A DNA stretch of 64,000 nt from Pseudomonadota bacterium. GTDB taxonomy: Bacteria; Pseudomonadota; Gammaproteobacteria; Burkholderiales; JBFMAC01. Positions 2,319 to 48,199 of the stretch are shown here, in pieces; position 1 is the stretch's first letter; the number at the start of each line of letters is the position of its first letter. The notes beneath the pieces were generated by a model. It saw only the letters and a program-made list of their open reading frames with translations, was not told the DNA's origin and did not search any database. A program made the position numbers and the translations under genes. The stretch covers positions 132,278 through 196,277 of the forward strand of contig JBFMAC010000004.1 of assembly GCA_040756015.1 (NCBI GenBank). Direction: 5' to 3'.

Positions 2319-3980
2319 TCAATGCGTCTTGTCGAATTCGGCATTGCGATTGAAATAGGCGAAGCAGGCTTTCAGGCATTCCTGCTCGCTCGCCGATGGT
2401 TCGATGAACTGGATGCCATACAGGTATTCGTTGCGGTTCTGTTTGTAGTCGGACCAGGCGATGCGCCCCTTGAGGTGCAGCGGCTTCTGCTGCTTGAAGG
2501 TGTCCAGGTCGTCGGTGGGCAGGAAGATAGCGAGCGATACCGGCTGCGTGGCGTCGATCGCCTCCGACAGCCTGAGGCGCAGGCCGGTCAGGCTGAAGTC
2601 CTTGCTGATGCCTTCCAGTGTGGTGCTGCCTTGGGTGGCCTTGATCAGCAGGTTGTTCTGCGCGCGAGGATGGTGGCGCTTTTCGTGCTGTGCGGGTTCG
2701 ATGACCACCTGGTTCTCGAACTTGAAGCCGGCCATCAACTCGTTCAGCTTGCCGGTCACGCCGTAGAGATTCTCGCCGATCGCCGCGGTGGTCTCGACCT
2801 TGGTTGAGCTTTCGCTCAGCGTCATGAAAAGTTTGTCCAGCGTTTTCTGCAACAGGCGGAAATTTTCCAGTTGGTCTTTGCTGGCCTGGCAGATGCCGCG
2901 GTTGGCGATGGCGGTTTCCTCCACTTCAGTGACCATGCTTTTGATGGCATTCTCGGTTTCGCTTGCCACCGACTGGTTGGCGTGAACCTTGTTGACCACC
3001 GAGCTCATCGAACCGGTGACGAGTTGCATGCTTTGCGTGAGGTCGCCGATGATGGCGGAAACTTCGGTGGCGGATACAGTGGTGCGTTCGGCGAGCTTGC
3101 GCACTTCGTCGGCGACGACCGCGAAGCCGCGTCCCTGTTCTCCGGCGCGCGCCGCCTCGATCGCGGCGTTCAGCGCGAGCAGGTTGGTTTGTTCGGCGAT
3201 GGTCTTGATCACTGCGATGATGTCGTGGATTTTTTCGGCGGAGTGTTCGAGGTTGTTGATTTGCCCCGACGCGCGATTGACTTCCTGCACGGTCAATTCC
3301 ATTTCCGCGATGTTCCTCTGCACCGTTAGGATGCCCTGGCGCGCGCGTTCCTCGGTGCGCTTGGCGCGTTCCGTCGCCGATTCGGCATTCGACTGCACCG
3401 TTTCGGATATTTCCTGCAAGCGGTCGGTGGCGTTGCTGACCTCGTTGGAGCGGTTCTGCTCTGCCTTGCTGACTTCCGCGATTTCGTTGGAAATCTTGGC
3501 GATCTGGTAGGCCGATTGCCCCATGCGTTTGCCGCTGTCGTTGATCTCGCGCATGATGGTGTTAAGCTTGGCCAGCATGGCGTTGAAGCCTTTTTCCAGT
3601 TGTCCGATCTCGTCGTGGGAGGTGTTCTCCACCCCCTTGGTCAGGTCGCCATGCTCGACGGCGCGTAGCGCCTGGCATAGTGCCAGGATGGGTTTGACGA
3701 ACAGTGTCGCCAGGAAGCCGATGACGAAGAATTGCAGCACGAATTCGATGCCGGATTCCCAGAAGGAATTGAAGATGTAGGCGTTGTGGTTGGCTTCGAG
3801 CTGCTCGATGATTTGCGCGCTGGCGCCGCCAGTCTGGGCGATTTCCACCATTTTGGTCAGTTCGTGCGACGCCAGCATGCGGTTGTAAATGGTGGTGACC
3901 ATGGTGACCACCATGAAAGCGATCTGTAGTTTCCAGCGGATGCTCAATTCGTGAAAACGGCTGGCGATGGATGAAAACAT
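2319..3980 (-). CDS. Methyl-accepting chemotaxis protein with HAMP and C-terminal PilZ domain
   Basis: 553-aa ORF. Two N-terminal TM helices, HAMP, MCP hairpin signature [37 protein letters not shown]-terminal RHHPR...DFSLTG matches PilZ RxxxR/DxSxxG. Confidence 0.9.
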
Positions 3981-4048: not shown

Positions 4049-4075
4049 ATTTCGGATACCGGCAAGGAAACTTTA
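4049..4075 (-). promoter_or_regulatory. Sigma-28 (FliA)-type promoter candidate for the MCP-PilZ gene
   Basis: Minus strand reads TAAAGTTT-N11-TCCGAAAT versus consensus TAAAGTTT-N11-GCCGATAA. Lies about 70 nt upstream of the ATG. Confidence 0.45.
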
Positions 4076-8756: not shown

Positions 8757-8786
8757 GAAAAGGGGCGCATGAGTGCGCCCCTTTTG
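8757..8786 (-). terminator. Rho-independent terminator of the aminotransferase gene
   Basis: GGGGCGCA-TGAG-TGCGCCCC flanked by an A-run and a T-run. On the minus strand the hairpin is followed by TTTTCTTTTT, 20 nt after the stop. Confidence 0.8.
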
Positions 8787-8806
8787 CATGGGTGCAGCAG
8801 CCTGGG

Positions 8807-10000: not shown

Positions 10001-10045
10001 GGTTTTTCCTTTAGAACAAATGCGGCGCGGGAGGCGCTACGACGT

Positions 10046-10351
10046 TTACGGTTGGGGTTGAAAAAGCCGCCATTTTACCCGCGATTGCGGCAATTCCCAA
10101 TATCCCCGGCAGGGGTGCGCTTCCAGTTTTGGATAGGGTGGGGTAGGGGTATGTGGCCACTGCATTCGCGCCCGGATAGGATCGCCGACGAGCACGGCCG
10201 CCAGATACAACGCTTCTTCCTCCGTCTGCGCATGCAATGCCAATTGTTCGGTCAGCCGTCCATACTTCGTTGCATGCTCGGTATGAGCCGCAAGGCGGAG
10301 TTTTTCAACAGTCGCGCGAATGGCCTTGTGTTCCCCGATCATTCTGGGCAC
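10046..10351 (-). pseudogene. Hemerythrin-like (HHE cation-binding) domain fragment, probably N-terminally truncated
   Basis: MIGEHKAIRATVEKL...LALHAQTEEEALYLAAVL resembles the second half of hemerythrin-like proteins. The upstream frame has no ATG before a stop. The tail runs into the aspC promoter region. Confidence 0.3.
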
Positions 10352-10475
10352 TGCGATTTCGCGCCCCAGCCTAGGGCTTGAGGGTGTTTGGCGCTGGCGG
10401 TACCCACGTTTGCCTGTGTCTTCGTGCTTGGCTGTTTGGCAAACGCTACATTAGCCGTACAATGTCCGGCTTACC

Positions 10476-30202: not shown

Positions 30203-31197
30203 GTCACCTGCCGTGGCATGAGGCTGCTTGGCGCGCGCTGCTGGCACAGAAGGGCACATTGCCGCATGCGCTGTTGTTCAAAGGCTCGAAGGGCATAGGC
30301 AAGCTCGTTTTTGCGCGCGCTTTTGCGCAGGCGTTGCTGTGCGAGACCCCGGACCCCGACGGTGACGCTTGCGACGGCTGCCCGTCCTGCCGCTGGTTCG
30401 CAACTGACAGTCATCCCGATTTCCGCTTGCTGGAGCCGCTCAAGGGTGAAGAGGGGGAAGATGAACTTGGCGAGTCCACCAAAAAGAAGGATGCCAAGGA
30501 AATCGTCATCAAGCAGATCCGTGCGCTGGAGGATTTCGTCGGCCTGTCGTCGCACCGTAACGGCGCCAAGGTGGTGCTGCTGTATCCAGCAGAAACGCTC
30601 AACACCAGCGCCGCCAATGCGCTGCTGAAAACGCTGGAGGAGCCGCCGCCGCGTACTTATTTCCTGCTGGTGTCGCACCGCTCGCGTCAGTTGTTGCCTA
30701 CCGTGTTGAGCCGCTGCCGCCAGGTGGCATTGCCGCCGCCGCGAGCGGAGCAGGCGCAGGACTGGCTCCGGCATCAGGGTATCGCCGATCCTCGACTGGG
30801 GCTGGCACAGGCCGGCTATGCGCCGTTGGCCGCGCTGGAACTGGAGCAGGGCGATTACTGGGAGGCGCGGCGCGTGCTGCTCGAACAATTGGCGCAGCAC
30901 CGCATTGACGCGCTAGCGCTGGCGGAGGGCAGCAAGGCGGAGGATCTGCCGCGCCTGCTGCTGTGGTTGCAGCAATGGACTTACGATTTGATTTTCTGCA
31001 AGTTTGCCGGGAAAATCCGTTACCATCTCGACTACGCCGAGGCGCTGGTTAGACTGGCGAAACGACTCGATGCCGTGATGCTGCTGCGCTTCCATCGCGA
31101 ACTGCTACGCCAACAGCGTATCGTGCAGCACCCGCTTAACCCGCGCCTGTTTGCCGAACAACTGTTGCTGTCTTATGTGAGACTGGTGGAAACATGA
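30199..31197 (+). CDS. holB: DNA polymerase III delta-prime subunit
   Basis: Inner ATG (ATGA overlap with the tmk stop). [13 protein letters not shown]. Zinc module [15 protein letters not shown] and SRC motifs. Confidence 0.85.
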
Positions 31198-31562
31198 GTG
31201 AAAATACAGGCGAAACTTCCGGTGTCAGGCATGGCGCCCTGTCGCTCAACATCAAGGAAAAGGCCACGCTCTATGCCGCCTATATGCCTTTCATCAAGGG
31301 TGGCGGGCTGTTCATTCCCACCACCAAGCGCTACCGCTTGGGTGATGAACTGTTCATGCTGCTGACGCTGATGGACGACCCCACGCGCCTGCCCGTGGCC
31401 GGCAAGGTGGTGTGGGTCACGCCCGACAGCATCCAGGGCGTCAAGCTGCAAGGCATAGGTGTGCAATTCTCCGACGACGAGGGCGGCAAAGCCGCGCGCG
31501 CCAAAATTGAAAACCTGCTGGGCGGAGTGAAGCAGTCGGCCAAGCCTACCCACACCATGTAG
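31194..31562 (+). CDS. pilZ: Type IV pilus assembly PilZ (non-canonical PilZ lacking RxxxR)
   Basis: LSLNIKEKATLYAAYMPFIKGGGLFIPT...LPVAGKVVWVTP...GIGVQF closely parallels Pseudomonas PilZ. Conserved position after holB. Confidence 0.85.
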   Translation: MSENTGETSGVRHGALSLNIKEKATLYAAYMPFIKGGGLFIPTTKRYRLGDELFMLLTLMDDPTRLPVAGKVVWVTPDSIQGVKLQGIGVQFSDDEGGKAARAKIENLLGGVKQSAKPTHTM

Positions 31563-31923: not shown

Positions 31924-33021
31924 TTAATCCGGATGGTTTTCCCGGATGGCGAGGATCTGCGGCAGCATCTTGGAGAATATTGCGGTGATGGCGGGATCAA
32001 AATGCTGGCCGCTTTGTTCGTTGATGTAGTGGATGGCATCCTCGATCGGCCAGGCTTTCTTGTAGGGGCGCTCCGAGGTGAGGGCGTCGAACACGTCCGC
32101 CACCGTGACGATGCGCCCGACCAGGGGGATGGCTTCGCCCTGCAAGCCTGCCGGGTAGCCACTGCCATCCCATTTTTCGTGGTGACATAGCGCAATCAGG
32201 CGCGCCATTTCCATCAGTTCGGAAGCATGGCCAGAGAGGATTTCCGCGCCGATCTCGGCGTGGGTCTTCATCACTTCCCATTCTTCCGGGTCGAGCTTGC
32301 CCGGCTTGAGCAGGATACGGTCTGGGATGCCGATCTTGCCGATGTCGTGCATCGGGCTGGCGTTGAGCAGCAGCTCGCATTCATGCGCCGACATGCCTAT
32401 ACCTTCGCCGAGCAGGGCGGAGATCTTGCTCATCCTGATGATGTGCATGCCGGTTTCGTTGTCCCGATATTCGGCGGCGCGCCCCAGGCGGCGGATGATT
32501 TCCAAGCGTGTGTTGGACAGTTCTCTGGTGCGGTTGCGTACCCGCTCTTCGAGCAGGCGGTTTTGCTCGTGCACTTGGCTGTGCAGCATGCGCACTTCCA
32601 GCATGTTGCGAATGCGTGTCGTCATCTCCAGCAGGTCGAATGGCTTGTTGATGTAATCTTTGGCACCCGATCGGAGCGCACGCAGCCGCAGTGCATTGTC
32701 GTTGAGCGCCGTCACCACGATCACTGGCACGTAGCCCATCGGCTCGACGGCCTCCAGTCTGCGCATGACTTCGAAACCATCCACTTCGGGCATGTTGAGG
32801 TCGAGCAGGATCAGGTCGAAGCCCTGTGCGGCGTGCATCTCCGCCACCCGTTCCGGTCGATCGGTCGTGCTGATGCGGGAAAATCCTTCGCCGCGCAGGA
32901 TTTTCTCGAGCAGCATGATGTTGGCCGGCTGATCGTCGACGATCAGGATATGGGCCGAATGGATAAGTGGAGGTAAGGCCGTCAGGGCGTTCCAGGGCAA
33001 TGCTTGCGCGATGTTTTGCAT
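31924..33021 (-). CDS. Response regulator with HD-GYP c-di-GMP phosphodiesterase domain (RpfG-like)
   Basis: REC domain (ILIVDDQ...ILLDLNMPEVDG) followed by HDIGKIGIPD and HHEKWDGSGYP. Confidence 0.9.
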   Translation of the reverse strand: MQNIAQALPWNALTALPPLIHSAHILIVDDQPANIMLLEKILRGEGFSRISTTDRPERVAEMHAAQGFDLILLDLNMPEVDGFEVMRRLEAVEPMGYVPVIVVTALNDNALRLRALRSGAKDYINKPFDLLEMTTRIRNMLEVRMLHSQVHEQNRLLEERVRNRTRELSNTRLEIIRRLGRAAEYRDNETGMHIIRMSKISALLGEGIGMSAHECELLLNASPMHDIGKIGIPDRILLKPGKLDPEEWEVMKTHAEIGAEILSGHASELMEMARLIALCHHEKWDGSGYPAGLQGEAIPLVGRIVTVADVFDALTSERPYKKAWPIEDAIHYINEQSGQHFDPAITAIFSKMLPQILAIRENHPD

Positions 33022-33111
33022 ATGATGGTTGACGGTTTTGGGTGGACATTACAATTACGGCAGCTTCCACGACAGGTTTAGAGCCTCCATACAGGCAGTT
33101 CCTCCCTCGTC

Positions 33112-33138
33112 TAAAGTATGCTTGGCCGGCGTCGATAA
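33112..33138 (+). promoter_or_regulatory. Sigma-28 (FliA)-type promoter upstream of the STAS gene
   Basis: TAAAGTAT-N11-GTCGATAA versus consensus TAAAGTTT-N11-GCCGATAA (14 of 16 positions). Ends 37 nt before the ATG at 33175. Confidence 0.55.
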
Positions 33139-33174
33139 CCAGTAAACCTGTTTTTCCAACAATCGGAGCTTTTC

Positions 33175-33480
33175 ATGCAAATCAATGTCCAGACTATGAA
33201 TGACAAGGCGCGGATGAGCTTGCAGGGGCGTTTCGATTTCAACGCCCACCGCGAGTTCCGCCAATCCTACGAATCCTTGCTGGCGCCCACCGAGGTGAAG
33301 GAAATCGAGGTCGACCTGGGCGGGGTGGAGTACCTCGACAGCTCCGCACTGGGCATGTTGCTCATGCTGCGCGAGAAGGCCGGGGCCAGCCAGAAGCAAC
33401 TGGCATTGTCGAATTGCCACGGCACGGTGCGGCAGGTGCTGGACATCGCCAATTTCGACAAATTGTTCAGCATTCGCTGA
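33175..33480 (+). CDS. STAS-domain anti-sigma-factor antagonist (HsbA/SpoIIAA-like)
   Basis: 101 aa. VDLGGVEYLDSSALGMLLMLRE contains the conserved phosphorylatable Ser context (DSSALG). Confidence 0.85.
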   Translation: MQINVQTMNDKARMSLQGRFDFNAHREFRQSYESLLAPTEVKEIEVDLGGVEYLDSSALGMLLMLREKAGASQKQLALSNCHGTVRQVLDIANFDKLFSIR

Positions 33481-33493
33481 TCCTTACGCCACC

Positions 33494-35215
33494 ATGGTGC
33501 GCCCCCTGAAAATCCTGGTGGCCGACGACGTCGATCACGTGCGCCAGTTGGTGACCAAATTCCTCCAGCAGATCGGCCACAGCACGGTGTTTGCTGCGGA
33601 CGGCGTGCAGGCGGTGGAGATGTTTCGCCAGGAGCAGCCGGACATGGTCATCATGGATGTGATGATGCCCAATCTGGGCGGCTTCGAGGCGACCGAGCAT
33701 ATCCGCAGGTTGTGCGGCGACAAATGGGTGCCCATCATATTTCTCACCGCGCTGGACCAGACCGAATCGGTGGTGACGGGGCTGGAGGCCGGCGGCGACG
33801 ATTACCTGACCAAGCCGGTCAATTTGCAGGTACTTCGCGCCAAGATCGCCGCCATCCAGCGCAGCCTGGAATTCCAGCATCAGTCGCTGGAGCGCAAGGA
33901 TGAACTGGCAAGGTATTACGCTGCTTCCGAGGATGAGAAAAAACTGGCGCGGCACATCATGGAACGGCTGGTCAAGCGCGACAAGCTGCAAGACAAGATG
34001 CTGCACTACTGGGTGTTCCCGGCGCAGGATTTCAGCGGCGACGTGGTGGCGGCAGCGCGAACGCCGAGCGATATGTTGCACGTGCTGCTGGCCGACGGTG
34101 CCGGGCATGGTCTCAGCGCGGCGCTCAACGTGCTGCCGATCACCCAGCCGTTTTACGCCATGACCGAGAGCGGCTTCGGTATCGGCAGCATTGCCGCCGA
34201 ACTCAACAAGAAGGTGCGCCAGTTGCTGCCGGTGGACCGCTTTGTCGCGACCACGCTGGTGGCGGTCGATTTCAGCGAGCGCATCATCCAGGTGTGGAAC
34301 GGCGGCAACCCCGTTCCCTTGCTGCTGGATGAGGCTGGAAAGCTGCTCGATTTTCCGATCTCGCGCCACGTACCCCTGGGCATCCTGCCGCAAGCAGAAT
34401 TTGATGCCGCGGTGAACTCGCGCCCGTTCCAGGATGCCTGCCAGCTGGTGCTGTATTCGGATGGCGTGATCGAGGCCGAGAGTCGCGCCCGGGTACAGTT
34501 CGGCAAGGAGCGGTTGCTGGCCGCGCTCGCCGGCAATTCGCCAGCGCGGCGCGGCGAAGCGGTGGGGCATGCGTTGAGCGCGCACCTTGCCGGCGGCGCG
34601 ATTTCCGACGATACCACCCTGGTGCTGGTCGATTGCTTGCCGGACGTCGGCTGCACCATGTTTCCGGCACAGGCGCCGCCCCAGGTGGTGATCAACGACG
34701 GGAAGGCCGAATGGCAGTTCCGCGTCAAGCTGGGTGCCAACGAATTGGGTTATGTCGACGTGGTGCCGCAGCTGCTTAATTTTGTCGGTCAAATCGAAAT
34801 TGCCAAGCCGCACAACGCCAAGGTGTTCCTGATCCTGTCCGAGCTGTTCAACAATGCGCTCGATCACGGCATCCTGCGCCTCGATTCCGGGATCAAGCAG
34901 GAGCCGGACGGGTTTTCGCGTTACCTGGATATGCGCGCGCAACGCCTGGCCGAGCTGGGCGACGGGTACGTCATCATCGAACTGGAACAGGTGGTGGCGC
35001 AGGATGTGGCCCAGTTGCGCATCAGCGTCACCGACAGCGGCGCTGGTTTCGACTACCGCCGGTTCCAGGTGCAGGACTGGAATTCCGCCCATCCGCACGG
35101 GCGCGGCCTGGGCCTGATCAAGTCGCTGTGCTCCAACCTGGAGTTCCACGGCAACGGCAACCAGGTGGTTGCCTATTACGATTTGCGGCAGCCCGCGCAA
35201 GCGCTCGCCGCCTGA
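33494..35215 (+). CDS. Three-domain partner-switching regulator: REC + PP2C (SpoIIE) phosphatase + RsbW-type Ser kinase (HsbR-like)
   Basis: REC (ILVADDV...VIMDVMMPNLGG). PP2C (SGDVV...LLADGAGHG...LYSDGV). HATPase_c (ELFNNALDHG N-box, VTDSGAGFD G-box). Confidence 0.85.
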   Translation: MVRPLKILVADDVDHVRQLVTKFLQQIGHSTVFAADGVQAVEMFRQEQPDMVIMDVMMPNLGGFEATEHIRRLCGDKWVPIIFLTALDQTESVVTGLEAGGDDYLTKPVNLQVLRAKIAAIQRSLEFQHQSLERKDELARYYAASEDEKKLARHIMERLVKRDKLQDKMLHYWVFPAQDFSGDVVAAARTPSDMLHVLLADGAGHGLSAALNVLPITQPFYAMTESGFGIGSIAAELNKKVRQLLPVDRFVATTLVAVDFSERIIQVWNGGNPVPLLLDEAGKLLDFPISRHVPLGILPQAEFDAAVNSRPFQDACQLVLYSDGVIEAESRARVQFGKERLLAALAGNSPARRGEAVGHALSAHLAGGAISDDTTLVLVDCLPDVGCTMFPAQAPPQVVINDGKAEWQFRVKLGANELGYVDVVPQLLNFVGQIEIAKPHNAKVFLILSELFNNALDHGILRLDSGIKQEPDGFSRYLDMRAQRLAELGDGYVIIELEQVVAQDVAQLRISVTDSGAGFDYRRFQVQDWNSAHPHGRGLGLIKSLCSNLEFHGNGNQVVAYYDLRQPAQALAA

Positions 35216-35281
35216 ATTTGTTTGTACTGCCGGTGCAGGCCGGAAGTTTCTCCGGTCGATGCATGAGCGCATAATTGCTGC

Positions 35282-37462
35282 ATGAGCGACATCGCCACCC
35301 TTCCCGCAGCCAGCCAGATCCCGCCGCCCGAACGGTTGGCGGCGCTCGTCGCACGTTACGCACCCGGCGAGGCGGAAACGGTGCGCACCGCCTGGAGTCG
35401 TGCCGCAACCGTTTACGGGCAGCAGCGACTAGGCAGCGGCGAGCCGGCGCTGGCGCATGCCGTCGAGGTTGCCCTGCTGCTCGATGCGATGCGCATGGAT
35501 CACGAAACCGTGTCTGCCGCGCTGCTGGCGCACGTGCCCGATTTTGCGCCGGACAGCATGGAATGGCTGAGACTGCATTGCGGCGCGGCGGTCGCGCAAC
35601 TGGTCGAAGGGCTGGGGCGTATGGCGCAGATCCAGGCGCTGTCCGGCGCGCCGCGCGCGGCGGAAGACCAGCACGCGCAGCTGGAGGCGTTGCGCAAGAT
35701 GCTGCTCGCCATGGTGCAGGACATCCGCGTGGTGCTGATCAAGCTCGCCGACCAAGTGCAGACGCTGCGCTTCGTGGTGGGCGCGGCGGACGAGGTATTG
35801 CGCCGGCAGACGGCACGCGAAACGCTGGACCTGTTCGCACCGCTCGCCAACCGGCTCGGTGCCTGGCAGTTCAAGTGGGAGCTGGAGGATTTGTCGCTGC
35901 GCATCCTCGAGCCGGAAATCTACCAGCGCATCGCGCGCCTGCTCGACGAGAAGCGCGGCCAGCGCGAGCGCTACATCGGTGACGTGATCGCGCTGCTGCG
36001 CCGGGAAATGCAGCAAGCCGGCATCAATGCCGAAGTGAGCGGGCGTCCCAAACACATCTACAGCATCTATAAAAAAATGCGGCGCAAGGACGTCGACTTC
36101 ACCGAGCTGTACGACGTGCGCGCGGTGCGTGTGCTGGTCGGCGACGTGAAGGACTGCTACGCCGCGCTTGGCGTGGTGCACAACCTGTGGACGCCCATCC
36201 CCAGGGAATTCGACGACTATATCGCCAAGCCAAAGGCCAACAACTACCGTTCCCTGCACACCGCGGTGATCGGGCCGGAGGGTAAGGCGCTGGAAGTGCA
36301 GATCCGCACCCACGACATGCACCGCGAATCCGAATTGGGCGTGGCGGCGCACTGGCGCTACAAGGAAGGTGGCAGGGGCGATGCCCGGTTCGACGACCGC
36401 ATCGCCTGGCTGCGCCAGCTGCTGGCGTGGAAGGACGAGGTGCCGGATGCCGGCGAGCTGGCGCAGCGCTTCAAGACCGGGCTGTTCGAGGACACCATCT
36501 ATGTGTTGACGCCGCAGGGCCGCGTGGTGGCGCTGCCCAAGGATGCCACGCCGGTGGATTTCGCCTACCATGTGCACACCGACCTCGGCCACCGCTGCCG
36601 TGGCGCCAAGGTGGATGGTGTCATGGTGCCGCTCAATTCCGCCCTGCACAACGGCGAGCGCGTGGAAATCAGCGCGGCCAAGCAGGGCGGTCCGAGTCGC
36701 GACTGGCTCAACCCGGAGCTGGGCTACCTGAAAAGCCACCGCGCGCGCGCCAAGGTGCGGCAGTGGTTCAATAGCCAGCAACTAGAGGAGGCGCTGGCGC
36801 AGGGGCGCACCATCGTCGAGCGCGAATTGCAGCGCGCCGGCATGACCGCATTCGGCCTCGACAGGCTCGCCGCTCTACTGCATTTCGCCAAACCCGATGA
36901 ATTACTCGCCGCGGCGGGACGCGGCGAAATCACGCCGCGACAGATACAGGACGCACTGCGTGCCGAAAGCGTGCCGGCAGAGCGGCCGTCCGGCATGCCA
37001 TTGGTGCGCAAGGCTGGCGCTGCCCCCGCTTCCGGCGGCGTGCTGGTGGTGGGAGTGGACAAGCTGATGACGGTGCTGGCCAAGTGCTGCAAGCCGGCGC
37101 CGCCCGATTCCATCATCGGCTTCGTTACGCGTGGGCGCGGGGTGACGGTGCACCGGCGCAGTTGCTCCAACGTCGCGCACTTGCCGCAGGAGCGTCTGAT
37201 CTCCGCCGATTGGGGCACGGCTGCCGAGCGCAGGTTTTCGGTGGACATCGAAGTCGAGGCGCATGATCGCCAGGGCTTGCTGCGCGACATTTCCGAAGTG
37301 CTGTCGCGCGAGAAAATCAACGTCACTTCCGCCAACACGCAAAGCCGTGGTGACATCGCACGCATGTCGTTCACGCTGGAGGTGGGCGACGTGACGCAAT
37401 TGGGGCACGTGCTGACGCTGCTCGGGGAGGTGCAGGGAGTGCTGGGAGCGAGGCGCAAATAA
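35282..37462 (+). CDS. relA: GTP pyrophosphokinase, (p)ppGpp synthetase I
   Basis: RelA/SpoT synthetase motifs (GRPKHIYSIYKKM, YRSLHT). TGS and ACT domains. The hydrolase HD motif is degenerate (ALLAHV), which supports RelA over SpoT. Confidence 0.9.
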   Translation: MSDIATLPAASQIPPPERLAALVARYAPGEAETVRTAWSRAATVYGQQRLGSGEPALAHAVEVALLLDAMRMDHETVSAALLAHVPDFAPDSMEWLRLHCGAAVAQLVEGLGRMAQIQALSGAPRAAEDQHAQLEALRKMLLAMVQDIRVVLIKLADQVQTLRFVVGAADEVLRRQTARETLDLFAPLANRLGAWQFKWELEDLSLRILEPEIYQRIARLLDEKRGQRERYIGDVIALLRREMQQAGINAEVSGRPKHIYSIYKKMRRKDVDFTELYDVRAVRVLVGDVKDCYAALGVVHNLWTPIPREFDDYIAKPKANNYRSLHTAVIGPEGKALEVQIRTHDMHRESELGVAAHWRYKEGGRGDARFDDRIAWLRQLLAWKDEVPDAGELAQRFKTGLFEDTIYVLTPQGRVVALPKDATPVDFAYHVHTDLGHRCRGAKVDGVMVPLNSALHNGERVEISAAKQGGPSRDWLNPELGYLKSHRARAKVRQWFNSQQLEEALAQGRTIVERELQRAGMTAFGLDRLAALLHFAKPDELLAAAGRGEITPRQIQDALRAESVPAERPSGMPLVRKAGAAPASGGVLVVGVDKLMTVLAKCCKPAPPDSIIGFVTRGRGVTVHRRSCSNVAHLPQERLISADWGTAAERRFSVDIEVEAHDRQGLLRDISEVLSREKINVTSANTQSRGDIARMSFTLEVGDVTQLGHVLTLLGEVQGVLGARRK

Positions 37463-37550: not shown

Positions 37551-40109
37551 ATGAAGCGGGGCGCATTCTGGAAGTCCGAGTGGCTCATCGGCTTGGGGCT
37601 GGCTTTGCTGATGCTGCTTGTGGCGGGTGGCGACCTGATGCAGAGCCTGGAGCGCAAGGCCTACGACCTCGGCGTGCTGGCCTCCAGCCGAACCCCCAGC
37701 GATCGCGTCGCCGTGATCGCCATCGACGACCAGAGTATCTCCAACATCGGCCGCTGGCCGTGGTCGCGCGAGGTACACGCCAAAATGATCGACCTCCTCG
37801 CGGGAGCGCAGGCCAAGGTGGTCGGCAACACCGTGTTTTTCTCCGAGCCTCAGTCCGACGCCGGACTCGCCTACATCAACAAACTCAACAAATTTTTCTC
37901 CGCGTCCCGGTTCAGGAACGCAATTGATCCGGCATTGCAGCAGGAGGCCGTGCAGCTTGCCGGTATGTTGCAGGAGGCCGAGCAAGACTTGAACGCCGAC
38001 CGCAAGCTGGCGCAAAGCATTGCCCAGGCCGGCAACGTGGTGCTGGCGATGGCGTTCCAGTTGGGCGAGCCGCGCGGCAATCCGGATCACCCCCTGCCCG
38101 ACTACCTGACGAAAAACGCGCTGCCCAATGTCGTCGATGCGGGGGGCGCGGCGGAGATGGGGCTGCTGCCGCTGTCCACGCTGTCGGCGGTGGTGCCGAT
38201 CGCTGAGCTTGGCATGCAGGCGGCTGCCATCGGCTACCTCAACCTGACTCCCGACCACGATGGCGGGGTGCGCTCCGAGCCCCTCGTGCTGCGCCATTAC
38301 GACCACTATTACCCGTCGCTGCCCTTGCTGCTGGCGGCGAAGAGCCTCAACCTGCAAGCTGCCGATGTCCAGGTGGTGCTGGGCGAGGGCGTAAGTCTGG
38401 GCAAGCTGCATATCGCCACCGATCCCGAATTGCGCATGAACACGTTTTTCTACAGGGACGCGGAGCGGCCGGCGTTCCAGGTGGATTCGTTTTACGACGT
38501 CTATAGCGGCAAAATTCCCGTGAGCAAATACGCCGGCAAGATTGTGCTGATCGGCGCCACCGCGCAGGGCGTGGGCGCGCCGCAGGTGACGCCAGTGTCA
38601 CCTGCGATGGCGCCGGTGCTGGTGCTGGCGCATTCGGTGTCGAGCATTCTGCAGGAGGACTTTTTCGTCGTGCCAGGCTGGGGTGTGTGGGCGGAGAAAG
38701 GCGTGTTCCTGCTTGTCGCGCTGTACCTGATGCTGGCGTTGCCGCGCCTCAAGGCAGGGCTGGCGGCGCTGTTTACCGCGCTGCTGTTCGTTGCCCTGCT
38801 GATCGCGCATTTCGCGCTGATGGTGGGGCAGTCGATGTGGCTGCAACTGATGACGCCGGCGGCGCTGTTGCTGATTGGCCATCTGCTGCTCACCACCAAG
38901 CGCTTCCTGGTGACCGAGCGCGGCAAGGAAAAATCCGAGGCAGAGTCGGCCGAGTCGAACCGCATGCTGGGCCTGGCGTTCCAGGGGCAGGGCCAGCTCG
39001 ATATGGCGTTCGACAAATTCCGCAAGCTGCCGATGGACGACGGTGTGATGGATCTTCTCTACAACCTGGCGCTCGATTTCGAGCGCAAGCGCCAGTTCAA
39101 CAAGGCCGAGGCGGTGTACCAGCACATGGCCGCCTACAACGCGAAATTCCGTGACCTCGAACAGAAGCTCAGCCGCGCCAAGGCGATGTCGGAAACCGTG
39201 ATCCTGGGCGGCGGCAGCGCCAGCGCGGCGATCAGTGGTACCGTGCTGATGGCGGGCGGTGGCGTGGAAAAGCCGATGCTGGGCCGCTACCAGGTGGAGA
39301 AGGAACTGGGTAAGGGCGCCATGGGTGTGGTCTACATGGGGCGCGACCCTAAGATCGGTCGCGTGGTGGCGATCAAGACAATGGCGTTGTCTCAGGAGTT
39401 CGAGGAAGACGAGTTGCAGGAGGTCAAGGAGCGTTTTTTCCGCGAGGCGGAAACGGCGGGACGGCTCAGCCATCCCAACATCGTCACCATCTATGATGCC
39501 GGCGAGGAGCACGACCTTGCCTATATCGCCATGGAACTGCTGAAAGGCAAGGACCTGGTACCCTATACCAAGCCAGATAACCTGTTGCCGCTGCCGAAAG
39601 TGCTGTCCGTCATCGCGCGCGTGGCCGATGCGCTGGGCTATGCGCATGCGCAGCATGTGGTGCATCGCGACATCAAGCCGGCTAATATTATGTATGAGCC
39701 GGAAGACGACATGGTAAAGGTGACCGATTTCGGCATCGCGCGCATCACCGATTCGAGCAAGACCAAGACCGGTATGGTGCTGGGCACGCCGTCGTACATG
39801 TCGCCGGAGCAGTTGGCGGGCAAGAAGATCGACGGGCATTCCGACCTCTTTTCGCTTGGGGTGACCTTGTACCAGTTGTGTTGCGGGCAACTGCCTTTTC
39901 AGGGTGACTCGATGGCGCAACTGATGTACAAGATCGCCAACGACCCGCCGCTGGATATCCGTACCCTGCGTCCCGATCTGCCGGTTGGCGTGGTGTTGGT
40001 GATCGCCAGGGCGATCGCCAAGCAGCCGGAGGCGCGTTACCAGACCGGCGAGGAAATGGCGCAGGCAATCCGCCAGTGTGCGGCGGCGATCAGCAACGAA
40101 GGAGCATGA
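37551..40109 (+). CDS. CHASE2-sensor transmembrane Ser/Thr protein kinase
   Basis: N-terminal CHASE2 (VAVIAIDDQSISNIGRWPWSR). TM cluster and TPR-like linker. Hanks kinase motifs GKGAMGVV, VAIK, HRDIKPAN, DFGIA, SPE. Confidence 0.9.
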   Translation: MKRGAFWKSEWLIGLGLALLMLLVAGGDLMQSLERKAYDLGVLASSRTPSDRVAVIAIDDQSISNIGRWPWSREVHAKMIDLLAGAQAKVVGNTVFFSEPQSDAGLAYINKLNKFFSASRFRNAIDPALQQEAVQLAGMLQEAEQDLNADRKLAQSIAQAGNVVLAMAFQLGEPRGNPDHPLPDYLTKNALPNVVDAGGAAEMGLLPLSTLSAVVPIAELGMQAAAIGYLNLTPDHDGGVRSEPLVLRHYDHYYPSLPLLLAAKSLNLQAADVQVVLGEGVSLGKLHIATDPELRMNTFFYRDAERPAFQVDSFYDVYSGKIPVSKYAGKIVLIGATAQGVGAPQVTPVSPAMAPVLVLAHSVSSILQEDFFVVPGWGVWAEKGVFLLVALYLMLALPRLKAGLAALFTALLFVALLIAHFALMVGQSMWLQLMTPAALLLIGHLLLTTKRFLVTERGKEKSEAESAESNRMLGLAFQGQGQLDMAFDKFRKLPMDDGVMDLLYNLALDFERKRQFNKAEAVYQHMAAYNAKFRDLEQKLSRAKAMSETVILGGGSASAAISGTVLMAGGGVEKPMLGRYQVEKELGKGAMGVVYMGRDPKIGRVVAIKTMALSQEFEEDELQEVKERFFREAETAGRLSHPNIVTIYDAGEEHDLAYIAMELLKGKDLVPYTKPDNLLPLPKVLSVIARVADALGYAHAQHVVHRDIKPANIMYEPEDDMVKVTDFGIARITDSSKTKTGMVLGTPSYMSPEQLAGKKIDGHSDLFSLGVTLYQLCCGQLPFQGDSMAQLMYKIANDPPLDIRTLRPDLPVGVVLVIARAIAKQPEARYQTGEEMAQAIRQCAAAISNEGA

Positions 40110-40933
40110 TGAGTTTGGTGAAGGTGTTGGAAATGGCAAGCGCGACCGATCCCGGCCTGGTGCGTTCGCATAACGAGGACAGCATTGCGGTCGATGCCGA
40201 CATCGGACTGGCGGTGCTGGCCGATGGCATGGGCGGTTACAACGCCGGCGAGGTGGCGAGTGGCATCGCGGTGTCGCTGATCATGAGCGAAATGCAACAG
40301 GCGCTGCCGTCGGTCGATCCGCACGCAGCGGGCGGCGTCAGCGGCGAGACCATCGGTGAGGTGCTGCTGCGTGACAAGATCGGGCGTGCCAATGCCTCGA
40401 TCTTCCAGGCTGCGATCAGCCAGCCGCAGTATGCCGGCATGGGCACCACGCTGGTGGCGGCGCTGTTTTACGATAACCGCGTCAGTGTCGGCCACATCGG
40501 CGATTCGCGCATGTACCGACTGCGCGCCGGGCAGTTCGAGCAGATCACGCGCGACCACTCGCTGTTACAGGAGCAGATCGACAGCGGCATGATCAGCAAG
40601 GAGATGGCGCGGCTGTCGCAGAACAAGAACCTGGTGACGCGCGCGGTGGGCATCGACCCCGACGTCGAGGCGGAAATCCATACGCATGCCGTGCAGGCGG
40701 GCGACATCTACCTGATTTGCTCCGACGGTCTCAACGACATGGTCGAGGACGAGGAGATCGGCGCCACGCTGGGCATGCTGGAAGCGAACCTGCCGCTGGC
40801 GGCGACACAGCTGGTGCAGATGGCCAACGACAACGGCGGGCGCGACAACATTTCAGTGATTCTGATAAAGGTGTTGAGCGAGTTTCCGGCGCAGGGTGGT
40901 TGGTTCGCAAAATTCCTATCGTGGTTTAAATAA
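40106..40933 (+). CDS. PP2C-family Ser/Thr phosphatase
   Basis: RSHNEDS, LADGMGG, GDSRMY and CSDGL motifs. ATGA overlap with the kinase stop. Confidence 0.9.
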   Translation: MMSLVKVLEMASATDPGLVRSHNEDSIAVDADIGLAVLADGMGGYNAGEVASGIAVSLIMSEMQQALPSVDPHAAGGVSGETIGEVLLRDKIGRANASIFQAAISQPQYAGMGTTLVAALFYDNRVSVGHIGDSRMYRLRAGQFEQITRDHSLLQEQIDSGMISKEMARLSQNKNLVTRAVGIDPDVEAEIHTHAVQAGDIYLICSDGLNDMVEDEEIGATLGMLEANLPLAATQLVQMANDNGGRDNISVILIKVLSEFPAQGGWFAKFLSWFK

Positions 40934-40945
40934 CGAGGTATTGCC

Positions 40946-41686
40946 ATGGCAAAGTTGATACTCAGTCTGGACGGTGCGGTGTTGCGCGAGATCGTGCTCA
41001 ACAAGGAGCGCACTACCATAGGCCGCAAGGAGCACAATGACGTCGTCATCGACAACCTGGCGGTGAGCGGCGATCACGCGCAGATCGTCAGCATCCTCAA
41101 CGACTCGTTCCTGGAAGACCTCGACAGCACCAACGGCACGCTGGTCAACGGCAACCCGATCAAGAAGCATTTCCTGCAGAACGGCGACGTTATCGAGATC
41201 GGCAAGTACAAGCTCAAGTATCTCAACGAAGGCGCGGCTGCCGGCCATGCGGCGGAAGAGTTCGAGAAGACCATGATCCTGCGGCCGTCCGCGCACACGC
41301 CTGCTGCGCCCGCGCCCAATCGTACCGGCGACGACACCCTGGTGAATACGCCGGCCTACTCGCCCGGGCGCGAAGAGGAAATGACCGCCAAGGTGGCGGC
41401 CATGCCGGCGGGCCATCTGCCGGTGGCCACGATCCAGTTGCTGAGCGGCCCGAATGCCGGCAGGGAACTGGAACTGGCCAAGACCCTGGTGACCATCGGA
41501 AAGCCGGGGGTGCAGGTGGCGGTGATCGCGCGCCGGCCGCACGGCTATTTCATCACCCATGTCGAAGGCGCTAATTTCCCGGTGCTGAACGGCAAGGTGC
41601 TTGATGCCCAGGCGCACCCGCTCAACGACCACGACGTGATCGAGCTGGCCGGCGTGAAAATGGAATTTTTCTTTAAAAGCGAGTAG
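40946..41686 (+). CDS. FHA-domain protein (canonical N-terminal FHA plus degenerate C-terminal FHA-like domain)
   Basis: TIGRKEHNDVVIDNLAVSGDHAQI...STNGTLVNG at the N-terminus. A Pro/Ala linker, then a second TIGKPG...VLNGKV module. Confidence 0.85.
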   Translation: MAKLILSLDGAVLREIVLNKERTTIGRKEHNDVVIDNLAVSGDHAQIVSILNDSFLEDLDSTNGTLVNGNPIKKHFLQNGDVIEIGKYKLKYLNEGAAAGHAAEEFEKTMILRPSAHTPAAPAPNRTGDDTLVNTPAYSPGREEEMTAKVAAMPAGHLPVATIQLLSGPNAGRELELAKTLVTIGKPGVQVAVIARRPHGYFITHVEGANFPVLNGKVLDAQAHPLNDHDVIELAGVKMEFFFKSE

Positions 41687-41726
41687 CGGCAAGGCAGCGG
41701 GACGCCCCATCCATTTACGGGACAGC

Positions 41727-43967
41727 ATGGAGAGACTCAAACAGAGTTGGGTGCGTATCGTTTTCGGGGTACTGCTCGTCCTGGTGTTTCTCGGCAACGC
41801 GATACACTTTTATTCCATCCCCTTCATCCAGCAGATCGAAGCGATCATTTACGATGCGCGCCTGCGCCTGACTATGTCGCGCAGCGTCGACGAGCGCATT
41901 GTCATCCTCGACATCGATGAGAAGAGCCTGGCCGCAGAGGGCCACTGGCCGTGGCCGCGCAACCGCATGGCCAGCCTGGTCGACAAGCTGTTCGACCGCT
42001 ACGGCATCGCCGTGCTCGGCTTTGACGTGGTGTGGGCGGAGAAGGACGAAAGCTCCGGCCTCAAGGTGCTAGACCAGCTTGCCGCGCGCGAACTGAAAGG
42101 CGATGGCGCCTACCAGGCGGTGTTGGCGCAGATACGTCCCAAGCTCGACTATGACGAATTGTTCGCCAGGTCGATCAAGGGCAGACGCGTGGTGCTGGGG
42201 TACTTCTTCTCCGGCGCGCTCGGCGACCAGGAGGCCACCACCACCGGCATGCTGCCCAAGCCGGCGCTGGTCGCCGGTACCTTCCAGGGCAGGAACATCC
42301 CCTTCATCGCCGCCACCGGCTACAGCGCCAACCTGCCGGTGTTGCAACAAAGCGCGGCGGGCGGGGGACATTTCACCCAGTTGCCGGACATCGATGGCGT
42401 GACCCGGCGCGTGCCGATGCTGATGGAGTACAAGGGCGCTTATTACGAAACCCTGTCGCTGGCGATGATGCGCGCCATGCTGGATTTCCCCGAGGTCGTT
42501 CCCGGCTATCCCGACGACGTATGGAGCAAAAGCTATCCGGGGCTGGAGTGGATCGAAGTGGGCGGCATGAAGATACCGGTGGACGAGAATGCACGTGCAT
42601 TGATTCCCTATCGCGGTCGCGCGGGCAGCTTCAAATACGTCTCCATCACCGATGTACTGCATGATCGCGTGCCGGCGGCGAGCCTCAAGGATAAGATCGT
42701 GATACTCGGCACCACCGCGCCGGGCCTGCTCGACTTGCGTTCCACGCCGGTGTCGCCGGTCTACCCCGGCGTCGAGGTGCACGCCAACCTGATTTCCGGC
42801 ATGCTCGACGGCGACATCAAGCAGAAACCTCCCTACGTGATGGGGGCAGAGTTCACCCTGCTGCTGGTTTCCGGCCTGCTGGTTGCGTTGCTGGTGCCGC
42901 TGCTCAGTCCGCTGCGCGCGACCCTGGTGACGCTGGCGGTGCTGGGCGCGGCGGTTGCGATCAACGTGGTGGTCTGGCATTACGGCAACCTGGTGCTGCC
43001 GTTGGCCTCCGGCTTGATGCTGATTTCGCTGATTTACGCGATGGACATGGCGTACGGCTTTTTTGTCGAGGCCCGCGCCAAGCGCCAGATCACCGGCCTG
43101 TTCGGGCAATACGTGCCGCCCGAACTGGTCGACGAGATGAGCAAGAACCCGGAGAACTTTTCGATGGCGGGTGAAAGCCGCGAAATGAGCGTGCTGTTCT
43201 CCGACGTGCGCGGTTTCACCAGCATCTCCGAGGGGCTGGACCCGAAGGAGCTGACGCAGTTGATGAACGAGTTCCTTACCCCTCTCACCAAGGTGATATA
43301 CAAGCACCGCGGTACCATCGACAAGTACATGGGCGATTGCATCATGGCGTTCTGGGGCGCCCCGCTCGACGATGCACAGCACGCGCGCCATGCCATCCTC
43401 GCCGGACTGGAGATGCAGAAGACGCTGCACGAATTGCAACCTTACTTCAAGCAGCGCGGCTGGCCGGCGATCGAGGTCGGCATAGGCGTCAACACCGGGC
43501 GCATGAGCGTGGGCAACATGGGTTCGGAGATCCGTCTGGCCTATACTGTGATGGGCGATGCGGTGAACCTCGCCTCGCGCCTGGAGGGCATCACCAAACA
43601 GTATGGCGTCGGCATGGTGGTGGGGGAGGCGACCAGGGAAAAGGTGCCGGATTTCGTGTTCCGCGAGCTGGATCGCGTGCGCGTGAAGGGCAAGGAGGCG
43701 CCGGTGGCGATCTATGAACCGCTTGGTCCTGCCGGGGAAGTTGCCCAAAGCGTGCTGGATGAGATTAAACTATTCCAGCAGGCGCTCAAATATTACCGCG
43801 CGCGGGATTGGGATCGCGCCGAGTTGCAGTTGCTCAACCTGCAAAAGACGGTGCCTGAAGGCTCGGAGTTCCATTTGTACCAGCTTTACCTTAAACGTAT
43901 TGCGCGTTACCGCGCCGAGCCGCCTGCCGGGGACTGGGACGGCGTGACGACATTCGAGACCAAGTGA
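41727..43967 (+). CDS. CHASE2-sensor class III adenylate/guanylate cyclase
   Basis: CHASE2 (IVILDIDEKSLAAEGHWPWPR) and TM cluster. Cyclase motifs VLFSDVRGFT, IDKYMGDCIMAFWG, MGDAVNLASRLE. Confidence 0.9.
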   Translation: MERLKQSWVRIVFGVLLVLVFLGNAIHFYSIPFIQQIEAIIYDARLRLTMSRSVDERIVILDIDEKSLAAEGHWPWPRNRMASLVDKLFDRYGIAVLGFDVVWAEKDESSGLKVLDQLAARELKGDGAYQAVLAQIRPKLDYDELFARSIKGRRVVLGYFFSGALGDQEATTTGMLPKPALVAGTFQGRNIPFIAATGYSANLPVLQQSAAGGGHFTQLPDIDGVTRRVPMLMEYKGAYYETLSLAMMRAMLDFPEVVPGYPDDVWSKSYPGLEWIEVGGMKIPVDENARALIPYRGRAGSFKYVSITDVLHDRVPAASLKDKIVILGTTAPGLLDLRSTPVSPVYPGVEVHANLISGMLDGDIKQKPPYVMGAEFTLLLVSGLLVALLVPLLSPLRATLVTLAVLGAAVAINVVVWHYGNLVLPLASGLMLISLIYAMDMAYGFFVEARAKRQITGLFGQYVPPELVDEMSKNPENFSMAGESREMSVLFSDVRGFTSISEGLDPKELTQLMNEFLTPLTKVIYKHRGTIDKYMGDCIMAFWGAPLDDAQHARHAILAGLEMQKTLHELQPYFKQRGWPAIEVGIGVNTGRMSVGNMGSEIRLAYTVMGDAVNLASRLEGITKQYGVGMVVGEATREKVPDFVFRELDRVRVKGKEAPVAIYEPLGPAGEVAQSVLDEIKLFQQALKYYRARDWDRAELQLLNLQKTVPEGSEFHLYQLYLKRIARYRAEPPAGDWDGVTTFETK

Positions 43968-44731
43968 TGAAACTGAGAGTGCTGGGATGCAGCGGGGGTA
44001 TAGGCGGGAAGTTGCGCACGACCTCGTTCCTGCTCGACAATGATGTGCTGATCGACGCTGGCAGTGGCGTCGGCGATTTGAGCATCGCCGAAATGGTGTT
44101 CATCGACCATATCTTCATCACCCATTCCCATCTTGACCATGTCGCCATGATTCCGCTGCTGGTGGATACCGTGGGCGGCATGCGCGACAGGCCGATCACG
44201 CTGCATGCCACGGAGGAGGTGCTGGATATCCTCAGGCAGCACATGTTCAACTGGAAGCTCTGGCCCGATTTCACCTGCATCCCCGATCCTGATCATCCAT
44301 TCCTGCGCTACCGCGCCATCGCCATGGGAGAGACAGTCACCTTGGATGGGCGCGCGATCACTGTGCTGCCCGCGGTGCACACCGTGCCGGCGGTGGGTTA
44401 CCAGATCGACAGCGGCAGCGCGAGTCTGGTGTTCACCGGCGACACCACAAGCCAGGAGGAGTTCTGGCGTATCGTCAACAGCATCGAGAACCTGCGTTAC
44501 CTGATCATCGAGACGGCCTTCTCCAACGCCGAGCGCGACCTGGCGATTGCTTCCAAGCATCTGTATCCGTTGTTGCTGGCGGAAGAGCTGGCCAAGTTCA
44601 AGCGCGAGGCGGAAATTTATATCACTCATTTGAAACCGGGCGAGATCGAACTGACGATGCAGGAAATCTACGATTGCGCGGCGCAATACCGACCGCATAT
44701 GCTTTACAACGGCAAGGTGTTCGATTTCTGA
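43964..44731 (+). CDS. Class-II 3',5'-cyclic-nucleotide phosphodiesterase (metallo-beta-lactamase fold)
   Basis: LRVLGCSGG start and THSHLDHVAMIPLL (HxHLDH signature). Start GTG 43964 or ATG 43967 overlaps the cyclase stop. Confidence 0.8.
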   Translation: MMKLRVLGCSGGIGGKLRTTSFLLDNDVLIDAGSGVGDLSIAEMVFIDHIFITHSHLDHVAMIPLLVDTVGGMRDRPITLHATEEVLDILRQHMFNWKLWPDFTCIPDPDHPFLRYRAIAMGETVTLDGRAITVLPAVHTVPAVGYQIDSGSASLVFTGDTTSQEEFWRIVNSIENLRYLIIETAFSNAERDLAIASKHLYPLLLAEELAKFKREAEIYITHLKPGEIELTMQEIYDCAAQYRPHMLYNGKVFDF

Positions 44732-44733
44732 TC

Positions 44734-45807
44734 ATGCCGCTGGATGCACAGACCTTGGCGCGGTTCGAGCCGTTTTCCTCCATGGCGGAAAAGACGGTGC
44801 GCCAGCTTGCCGCAGTGGGCGTGACGGTCAGGGCGCACCCAGGCGCCGATCCGTTTGCCGACAACGATTTCAGCCACCACTTGGTATACCTGATCCGGGG
44901 CGGGTTGCGCCTCGCTTACGGTGACAGCGAGGCCGAGGTGGTGGTGGCCGGCAGCGAGCAGGCACGCTATCCGCTGGGGCGCGACCGTCCCGGCCTGCTG
45001 GCGACACGCGCCATGGACGACGTCGAGCTCGCGCGCATGGACGAGGAGCTGGTCGAAACGGCGGTGGCGTGGGATCAGCTCACGCCGCCGGGGCAGGAAG
45101 CAGACGGCGAAGACCAGGCACGGCGCGCCGACCGCGTGGTCGACACCGGCATGTTCAGCGCGATGATGTTCAAATACGGTGTGCTGGCCATGTTGCCGCC
45201 GAAAAATGTCATCGACCTGATCGGCAAGATGCGCATGATGACGGTGCGGCGCGGCGATGTCGTCGTGCGCGAGGGAGACCCGGCCGATTGTTATTATATG
45301 ATCGAGAACGGCCAGGCACTGGTGACTCGTCAGGTTGGCGACCAGAATGTGGTGTTGGCCGAGCTGCGCAGCGGCGGGGCTTTCGGCGAGGACGCGCTGG
45401 TTTCCGGTGGTCAGCGCAACGCCACCGTGACGATGAAAAGCGACGGCATTTTGCTGACGCTGGAAAAAAGCGCCTTCCTGGATCTGATGCGCCGGCCGCT
45501 GCTCAACGAGCTGACCATGCCGGAAGCCGAGCAGCGGGTGGCAGCGGGGGCGGTGTGGCTTGACCTGCGTTACCCGCCGCAGTATCGGCGCGGCCGGCTG
45601 CCGGGGGCAGTCAACATCCCGCTCAGCGAATTGCGTACCGCGCTCAGTGTGCTCGACAAGAGCAAGGAATACGTGGTGTATTGCCATAACGGACGCAGCG
45701 GTGCCATTGCCGCTTTCGTCATGTCGGAGAACGGTTTCAAGGCTTATACCTTGAAGAACGGTTGGCAGCCGGAAGCGGCACCAATATCGCGCGAGGGATC
45801 GCTATGA
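44734..45807 (+). CDS. Tandem cyclic-nucleotide-binding domains fused to a rhodanese domain
   Basis: The second CNB has GDPADCYYMIENG...GGAFGEDALVSGGQRNATV (phosphate-binding-cassette-like). C-terminal rhodanese with VVYCHNGRSG. Start is 2 nt after the PDE stop. Confidence 0.8.
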   Translation: MPLDAQTLARFEPFSSMAEKTVRQLAAVGVTVRAHPGADPFADNDFSHHLVYLIRGGLRLAYGDSEAEVVVAGSEQARYPLGRDRPGLLATRAMDDVELARMDEELVETAVAWDQLTPPGQEADGEDQARRADRVVDTGMFSAMMFKYGVLAMLPPKNVIDLIGKMRMMTVRRGDVVVREGDPADCYYMIENGQALVTRQVGDQNVVLAELRSGGAFGEDALVSGGQRNATVTMKSDGILLTLEKSAFLDLMRRPLLNELTMPEAEQRVAAGAVWLDLRYPPQYRRGRLPGAVNIPLSELRTALSVLDKSKEYVVYCHNGRSGAIAAFVMSENGFKAYTLKNGWQPEAAPISREGSL

Positions 45808-48179: not shown

Positions 48180-48199
48180 TGCCGGCGGGGAGGTAAGCA

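Follow-up and report, generated by a model that had tools for sequence, protein, structure and literature searches.

What does a two-gene partner switch do behind a promoter that resembles those of the flagellar sigma factor sigma-28 (FliA), when neither chemotaxis nor flagellar genes surround it? The question is raised by a stretch of 64,000 nucleotides (nt) from a Pseudomonadota bacterium of the Burkholderiales (assembly GCA_040756015.1, contig JBFMAC010000004.1, positions 132,278 to 196,277), which is referred to here as the window. In the window, a gene for a STAS anti-sigma-factor antagonist is followed by a gene for a three-domain response regulator, in which a receiver domain (REC), a PP2C/SpoIIE phosphatase domain and a GHKL kinase/anti-sigma domain are fused (Table 1). 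Taken as a whole, this locus is probably best explained as a stand-alone bicistronic partner-switch operon of the CrsA/CrsR-HsbA/HsbR family that is read from a FliA promoter, with sigma-S (RpoS) as the tentatively preferred output.

The element in front of the STAS gene, TAAAGTAT-N11-GTCGATAA, agrees with the enterobacterial FliA consensus, TAAAGTTT-N11-GCCGATAA, at 14 of the 16 positions, a count first given in a sequence-only reading of this DNA and reproduced when we re-read the motif in place. It has the spacing, the C before TAAAG and the short start-codon distance of Class III/IV FliA promoters, and differs from the consensus in having an A for T at position 7 of the -35 element and a T for C at position 2 of the -10 element. 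The element is oriented toward the STAS gene, and the distance from its -10 element to the STAS ATG (33175) is 36 nt, one less than the 37 nt reported previously; transcription is predicted to start at approximately 33145-33147. No other site in the window matches the consensus as well or has two or fewer mismatches. The base composition of the window (61% G+C, both strands considered) leads to an expectation of 0.0076 sites of this quality per 64 kb, or approximately 0.4 per 3.5-Mb genome, and the latter value falls to approximately 0.02 if the site is also required to lie in the correct orientation within approximately 120 nt of a start codon (i.e., approximately 5% of positions). When the window was shuffled (n = 100), the mean number of matches with three or fewer mismatches was 0.16, and none of the 100 shuffles gave the two matches observed. 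Neither strand of the 153-nt intergenic region showed a sigma-70-like site. The possibility that the leader or the intergenic region contains an RNA element was rejected, as there were no Rfam matches. The predicted sigma-28-type promoter is of high quality.

Table 1. Coordinates of the partner-switch locus and of other features of the window (aa, amino acids; MCP, methyl-accepting chemotaxis protein; (p)ppGpp, guanosine tetra- and pentaphosphate; c-di-GMP, cyclic di-GMP).
Feature	Position	Strand	Description
Sigma-28 (FliA)-type promoter, predicted	33112..33138	+	-35 TAAAGTAT 33112-33119, 11-nt spacer, -10 GTCGATAA 33131-33138
Ribosome-binding site GGAG	33165..33168	+	6 nt 5' of the STAS start codon; read from sequence
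STAS anti-sigma-factor antagonist (HsbA/CrsA-like)	33175..33480	+	101 aa; PF13466 at 3.5e-19, PF01740
Three-domain response regulator (HsbR/CrsR-like)	33494..35215	+	573 aa; Response_reg, SpoIIE/PP2C, HATPase_c_2 (Pfam)
REC domain of the regulator (Response_reg)	33512-33847		aa 7-118; Asp55
PP2C/SpoIIE phosphatase domain of the regulator	34070-34633		aa 193-380
GHKL kinase/anti-sigma domain of the regulator (HATPase_c_2)	34781-35173		aa 430-560
Divergent intergenic region	33022..33174	.	153 nt; contains the sigma-28-type promoter
REC-HD-GYP response regulator, putative c-di-GMP phosphodiesterase	31924..33021	-	365 aa; Response_reg, HD_5, HD (Pfam)
pilZ	31194-31562		Pfam
RelA/SpoT-family (p)ppGpp synthetase gene	35282..37462	+	66 nt 3' of the fusion gene; Pfam
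Second-best FliA-like site in the window	4049..4075	-	TAAAGTTT-N11-TCCGAAAT; 68 nt upstream of the chemoreceptor gene
HAMP-MCP-PilZ chemoreceptor gene	2319..3980	-	553 aa; MCPsignal 1.6e-42, PilZ 1.6e-13 (C-terminal), HAMP

The two genes themselves had been read earlier as a STAS gene followed by a REC-PP2C-RsbW-like kinase fusion, and their Pfam domains confirmed both; the STAS protein also scored 61 bits against TIGR00377, above the cut-off of that model. They do adjoin each other, although the gap between them is 13 nt rather than the 14 nt given before, an operon-like spacing. In the STAS protein, the putative phospho-acceptor Ser56 lies within the motif DYLDSSALGMLL, aligns with the first Ser in the DSS motif of SpoIIAA and has the same residue number as the published HsbA phospho-site. 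All 12 related STAS proteins (12/12) are 101 aa in length, and D-S-S / DYLDSSALGMLL is invariant among them. Alignment of 20 homologues of the fusion protein revealed that the REC residues D11, D12, D55 and K107, the metal-binding residues of PP2C (D183, D201-x-x-G204-H205-G206, D323-G324 and D372-D373) and the N and G boxes of GHKL (E450, N454, D514-x-G516-x-G518 and G536-x-G538) were also invariant. Given that the catalytic residues and the STAS Ser56 are intact, the fusion protein should be enzymatically competent as both kinase and phosphatase of the STAS protein.

By its architecture, gene order and Ser56, the pair is assigned to the HsbR/HsbA-CrsR/CrsA partner-switching family. The architecture required of this family (i.e., REC, PP2C and GHKL in that order plus an adjoining STAS protein with a phosphorylatable Ser) is present. 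The protein search returned hundreds of fusion homologues with the same three Pfam domains, the best of which was only 52% identical. Two homologues with 45% identity (P0066 and P0116) bear the JGI name "HptB-dependent secretion and biofilm response regulator," which is the KEGG name of HsbR. NCBIfam contains no model specific to the HsbR/CrsR-HsbA/CrsA family.

The window pair was compared with characterized systems. Like HsbA/HsbR of Pseudomonas (PA3347/PA3346 and PP_4364/PP_4363; HptB pathway), it combines a REC-PP2C-GHKL regulator of approximately 571-573 aa with an adjacent STAS protein containing Ser56, and the STAS gene comes first, as in hsbAR-hptB of P. putida. The family is also tied to flagellar/chemotaxis genes, and the promoter region of P. 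putida hsbA is FliA-responsive. In contrast, the window has neither hptB downstream of the regulator gene nor a flagellar cluster around it; instead of hsbD, cheR or fliK, its module is next to the REC-HD-GYP gene and relA, and the wider neighborhood consists of fab genes, mltG-tmk-holB-pilZ and an island of Ser/Thr-kinase and cyclic nucleotide (cNMP) genes. The same three-domain regulator and STAS antagonist are found in CrsA/CrsR, the anti-sigma-S switch of the che1 locus of Shewanella oneidensis. Like crsA/crsR in che1, most relatives of the window protein end MCP-CheR-CheD-CheB clusters, whereas the window copy is away from any che operon, and the F7-type chemosensory cluster (i.e., MCP-CheR-CheD-CheB) of the Crs subtype was not found around it. 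The CrsR-like protein in a che locus of Marinospirillum (L003, 565 aa) is only 31% identical to the window fusion over residues 76-555. A PP2C phosphatase and a GHKL serine kinase also act on one STAS serine in RsbU/RsbV/RsbW and SpoIIE/SpoIIAA/SpoIIAB of Firmicutes and in SypE/SypA of Vibrio fischeri, the targets of which are sigma-B, sigma-F or biofilm functions. The kinase and phosphatase of the Firmicutes switches are, however, separate proteins, and the domain order of SypE is kinase-REC-phosphatase. The window locus is therefore a divergent orphan member of the HsbR/HsbA-CrsR/CrsA family that is detached from che/flagellar genes.

Relatives of the pair were collected by the protein search, a scan of metagenome contigs and a scan of genome contigs, the last of which was dominated by generic receiver domains, so that only L001-L003 of that scan were relevant. 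The STAS-then-fusion order was kept in every related locus with readable upstream DNA except that of Methylogaea (L113), in which no STAS gene was called and the module converges on cheB-cheD-cheR-MCP. In seven loci, i.e., L083, L085, L114 (Sulfuricella sp. T08), L115 (Leeia oryzae), L118, L092 and L095, the pair comes after cheB and closes an MCP-CheR-CheD-CheB cluster. The pair of Chitinimonas lacunae is between cheV-cheV-cheY-cheZ and a gene for an NtrC/FleR-type sigma-54 activator, which is followed by fliE-fliF-fliG, and in the gammaproteobacterium Marinospirillum the CrsR-sized version comes after CheD-CheB-MCP-STAS. This che-linked arrangement matches that of crsA and crsR, which were placed in the che1 locus of S. 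oneidensis (PMC9855816), and parallels the hsbA-hsbR-hptB genes of Pseudomonas, which were placed in the flagellar cluster (PMC5085249; bioRxiv 10.1101/2021.08.29.457346). Because the nearest relatives are mostly found after cheB in MCP-CheR-CheD-CheB operons, "Hsb/Crs family" is a safer label than Hsb. The HsbR/HsbA label proposed earlier thus holds for the architecture, the gene order (hsbA then hsbR) and Ser56, but not for the Hpt-type context. In L118, a gene for a REC-GGDEF protein with a faint match to a histidine phosphotransfer (Hpt) domain (6664-8328, -) runs convergently toward the fusion gene and adjoins it directly. After this REC-GGDEF gene come a single-domain REC gene and a gene for a protein of 1188 aa, a layout that recalls CfcR/CfcA, the partners of HsbA in P. 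putida.

Additional evidence for sigma-28 control was found both in the window and among the relatives. The second-best FliA-like site of the window, which shares CTAAAGT with the site in front of the STAS gene, also precedes a chemotaxis gene, i.e., that of the HAMP-MCP-PilZ chemoreceptor, upstream of which there is also a divergent tRNA-Asn (4245-4320, +). Chemoreceptor genes are typically FliA-dependent. The site in front of the MCP-PilZ gene may therefore be an indirect sign of a sigma-28 regulon in the host organism. The contig of L082, the closest relative (52% identity), has TCAAGTAT-N11-GCCGTTAA at 4981-5007 (+), 30 nt before a gene for a YcgR-like (PilZNR) flagellar brake (5037-5699, +), which suggests that TCAAG...GCCGTTAA is the form that sigma-28 promoters take in the L082 clade. 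Three further loci, which are related to each other and were counted as one lineage, contain this variant (TCAAG/TCAGG...GCCGTWA) 36-37 nt before the STAS start (L092 3600-3625, L094 1389-1415 and L095 3600-3625, all +). When aligned, their GCCGTWA -10 elements are in register with the -10 element of the window, while the flanks have diverged. All three have the sigma-28-like element although their STAS gene directly follows cheB, which suggests that the partner-switch genes have a promoter of their own within a chemosensory operon. The relaxed TCAAG/TCAGG...GCCGTWA pattern matched seven times (five independent matches) in 220 kb of related loci and window, and four of the five independent matches precede either STAS genes (three) or the YcgR-like gene (one). 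Consistent with FliA input to this family, PhsbA of P. putida behaves as a FliA-responsive Class III promoter (bioRxiv 10.1101/2021.08.29.457346).

How the switch might work can be proposed from the characterized members of the family. Phosphorylation of the receiver domain would turn the fusion protein from a kinase of the STAS protein into its phosphatase, and this shift would set the phosphorylation of Ser56. The state of Ser56 would in turn decide between binding of the STAS protein to the GHKL domain, with release of what that domain sequesters, and binding to other partners. The promoter, on the other hand, implies that the operon would behave as a late flagellar/chemotaxis-class gene transcribed by RNA polymerase with FliA, that motile cells would thereby be loaded with the partner switch, and that in the lineage of the window a dedicated promoter may have replaced the physical linkage to che/flagellar operons that is seen in the relatives.

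Three outputs of the switch were ranked. Sequestration of sigma-S by the GHKL domain, as in CrsR, is the single most likely option, although we favor it only tentatively. It is ranked first because the context of the relatives is CrsR-like, one relative adjoins rpoS, and both characterized homologues, i.e., CrsR and HsbR, bind RpoS (PMC6482189). The relative in question is Sulfuricella sp. T08 (L114 6823-10044, -; DF967524.1), in which the STAS-fusion pair converges on surE-pcm-nlpD-rpoS. This adjacency fits the published binding of CrsR/HsbR to sigma-S and hints at a link between the family and sigma-S. As the nearest relatives are in a context of the Shewanella CrsA/CrsR (che1) type, a sigma-S target is at least as likely as FlgM.

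Several observations nevertheless weigh against a FliA-driven operon with sigma-S output. Neither fliA nor flgM, rpoS or flagellar genes were found in the window or in approximately 10 kb past its right-hand end. A sigma-28-like element in front of the STAS gene was absent from eight other related loci. The main hsbA promoter of P. putida depends on RpoS and (p)ppGpp, and the effect of FliA on it is modest or residual; HsbA of that species affected neither FliA nor RpoS activity (bioRxiv 10.1101/2024.11.25.625174). The outputs of the HsbR/CrsR family are evidently species-specific. None of the collections searched (proteins, genome contigs and metagenome contigs) yielded a relative above 52% identity. 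Part of this evidence would be expected if the sigma-28 match were fortuitous and non-functional, the operon being read from an unrecognized sigma-70 or sigma-S promoter in an organism that may be non-flagellated: most relatives have no such element before the STAS gene, neither fliA nor a flagellar structural gene can be seen in the DNA available, most of the PhsbA activity in P. putida is RpoS-dependent, and approximately 0.4 sites of equal quality are expected somewhere in a 3.5-Mb genome. This explanation is unlikely, however, given the much lower expectation once position and orientation are taken into account, the chemotaxis gene behind the next-best site of the window, the sigma-28-like element at an equal distance from the STAS gene in a related lineage and the lack of a detectable sigma-70-like site in the intergenic region.

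A FliA-driven operon could also act on FliA itself. In the model put forward by the sequence-only reading, the unphosphorylated STAS protein would bind FlgM, as HsbA does in P. aeruginosa, and free FliA, which would transcribe the operon and thereby create a positive feedback loop. The architecture, gene order and Ser56 of HsbA/HsbR, the sigma-28-type promoter and the ties of the family to flagellar/che clusters in relatives all accord with this model, and binding of HsbA to FlgM in P. aeruginosa has been published, as cited in PMC6482189 and PMC5085249. The genes within 10 kb on each side, however, include neither hptB nor flgM, and the nearest relatives are che1/CrsR-like in context and not Hpt-linked. 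In P. putida, moreover, deletion or overproduction of HsbA left FliA-dependent PcheA and swimming unchanged, and FlgM was not recovered by co-immunoprecipitation (bioRxiv 10.1101/2024.11.25.625174). As HsbA of P. putida is without effect on FliA activity, the feedback loop stays purely conjectural, and we regard FlgM antagonism, the second-ranked output, as improbable for the window pair.

Control of a c-di-GMP enzyme, the third-ranked output, appears somewhat less likely still. Here the STAS protein, in one of its phosphorylation states, would bind and control the divergent REC-HD-GYP phosphodiesterase, the gene of which shares the 153-nt control region with the operon. There are precedents for such an output, i.e., activation of the cyclase HsbD by HsbA-P in P. 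aeruginosa (PMC5085249) and inhibition of the REC-GGDEF protein CfcR by HsbA in P. putida (bioRxiv 10.1101/2024.11.25.625174), and in addition to the REC-GGDEF gene abutting the module in L118, GGDEF genes are found within a few genes of the module in L115 and L116. The HD-GYP neighbor, however, is conserved in none of the related loci (0), an immediately adjacent gene for a c-di-GMP enzyme was found in only two of approximately 10 independent loci, and such genes are so numerous in these genomes that their adjacency may be due to chance. A broader version, in which the sigma-28-driven module ties late flagellar expression to both c-di-GMP and (p)ppGpp by STAS control of the REC-HD-GYP protein and by transcription from the FliA promoter into relA, is very unlikely; if true, it would bring expression of the (p)ppGpp synthetase into the flagellar regulon, the reverse of the situation in P. 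putida, where (p)ppGpp induces hsbAR.

The genes that flank the operon are as the first reading had described them. The divergent gene was confirmed as a REC-HD-GYP gene by its Pfam domains and by the HD and GYP motifs in its translation (...PMHDIGK... and HHEKWDGSGYP); its score against NF053512, 166 bits, is below the 400-bit cut-off, so it does not belong to that specific subfamily. The pilZ and relA flanks were likewise recovered by Pfam, and the reported absence of an adjacent Hpt gene held up: neither the genes called in the 10 kb to each side of the module nor the other open reading frames (ORFs) of the window that were scanned included one with an Hpt domain, and no CheA or histidine-kinase gene was found near the module. 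The pilZ gene is the last of a housekeeping block, fabHDG-acpP-fabF-pabC-mltG-tmk-holB-pilZ, and was rejected as a functional partner because it marks the end of the conserved mltG-tmk-holB-pilZ part of that block. Conserved adjacency of the HD-GYP gene or relA was rejected as well, as neither neighbor occurs in any related locus and no full-length HD-GYP orthologue was found there. No terminator-like hairpin is present in the 66 nt that separate the fusion gene from relA (35216-35281; fold z-score -0.27), so read-through from the sigma-28-type promoter into relA is possible. Such read-through would be curious in view of the induction of hsbAR by (p)ppGpp in P. putida, and the adjacency to relA is unique to the contig of the window.

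Other features of the window concern the surroundings of the operon. Directly after relA there is a signaling island (37551-49807, +), which encodes a CHASE2-Ser/Thr kinase, a PP2C phosphatase, an FHA protein, a CHASE2-adenylate/guanylate cyclase, a class II cNMP phosphodiesterase, a cNMP-binding-rhodanese protein and a GAF-MshEN-T2SSE ATPase as well as a second HD-GYP protein (GAF-HD-GYP, 48200-49807). Near the right-hand end, a gene for an ankyrin-repeat protein with at least six repeats (62929-63948, -; 339 aa as an ORF of the window and 387 aa in the record) adjoins scpA-scpB and a ParA-like gene. To the right of the window end are molybdopterin genes, ScpAB and a type I restriction-modification system, the last of which, just past the end, includes a RhuM-like gene (L117 12263-20624). 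The ORFs at 8660-10381 (+, 573 aa) and 6354-8624 (-, 756 aa) had no Pfam match and are antisense to genes for an aminotransferase (8807-10000, -) and a radical-SAM protein (6339-8504, +), respectively; they were dismissed as high-GC shadow ORFs and are not genes.

In Pseudomonas and Shewanella, the CrsA/CrsR-HsbA/HsbR family chooses between motile and sessile/stress programs. The FliA input to the hsbA promoter of P. putida and the tie of the family to motility genes are already known. What is added here is that a detached copy of the switch has a near-consensus sigma-28 promoter and that a different lineage has similar elements within its che operons. This is a modest addition and, given that both the link to motility genes and the effect of FliA on hsbA have been published, an incremental refinement rather than a new principle. 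The promoter of the window and the sigma-28-like elements that precede STAS genes inside the che operons of that other lineage suggest that the family is recurrently coupled to the flagellar regulon, which would come about either through membership in an operon or through a promoter dedicated to the switch. Should the promoter prove genuine, the locus would be an unambiguous example of a CrsA/CrsR-HsbA/HsbR partner switch under direct FliA control. Although its organism is known only as a metagenome-assembled genome, the locus, with two genes and one promoter and without Hpt or che partners, may offer a simple system in which this control could be tested.

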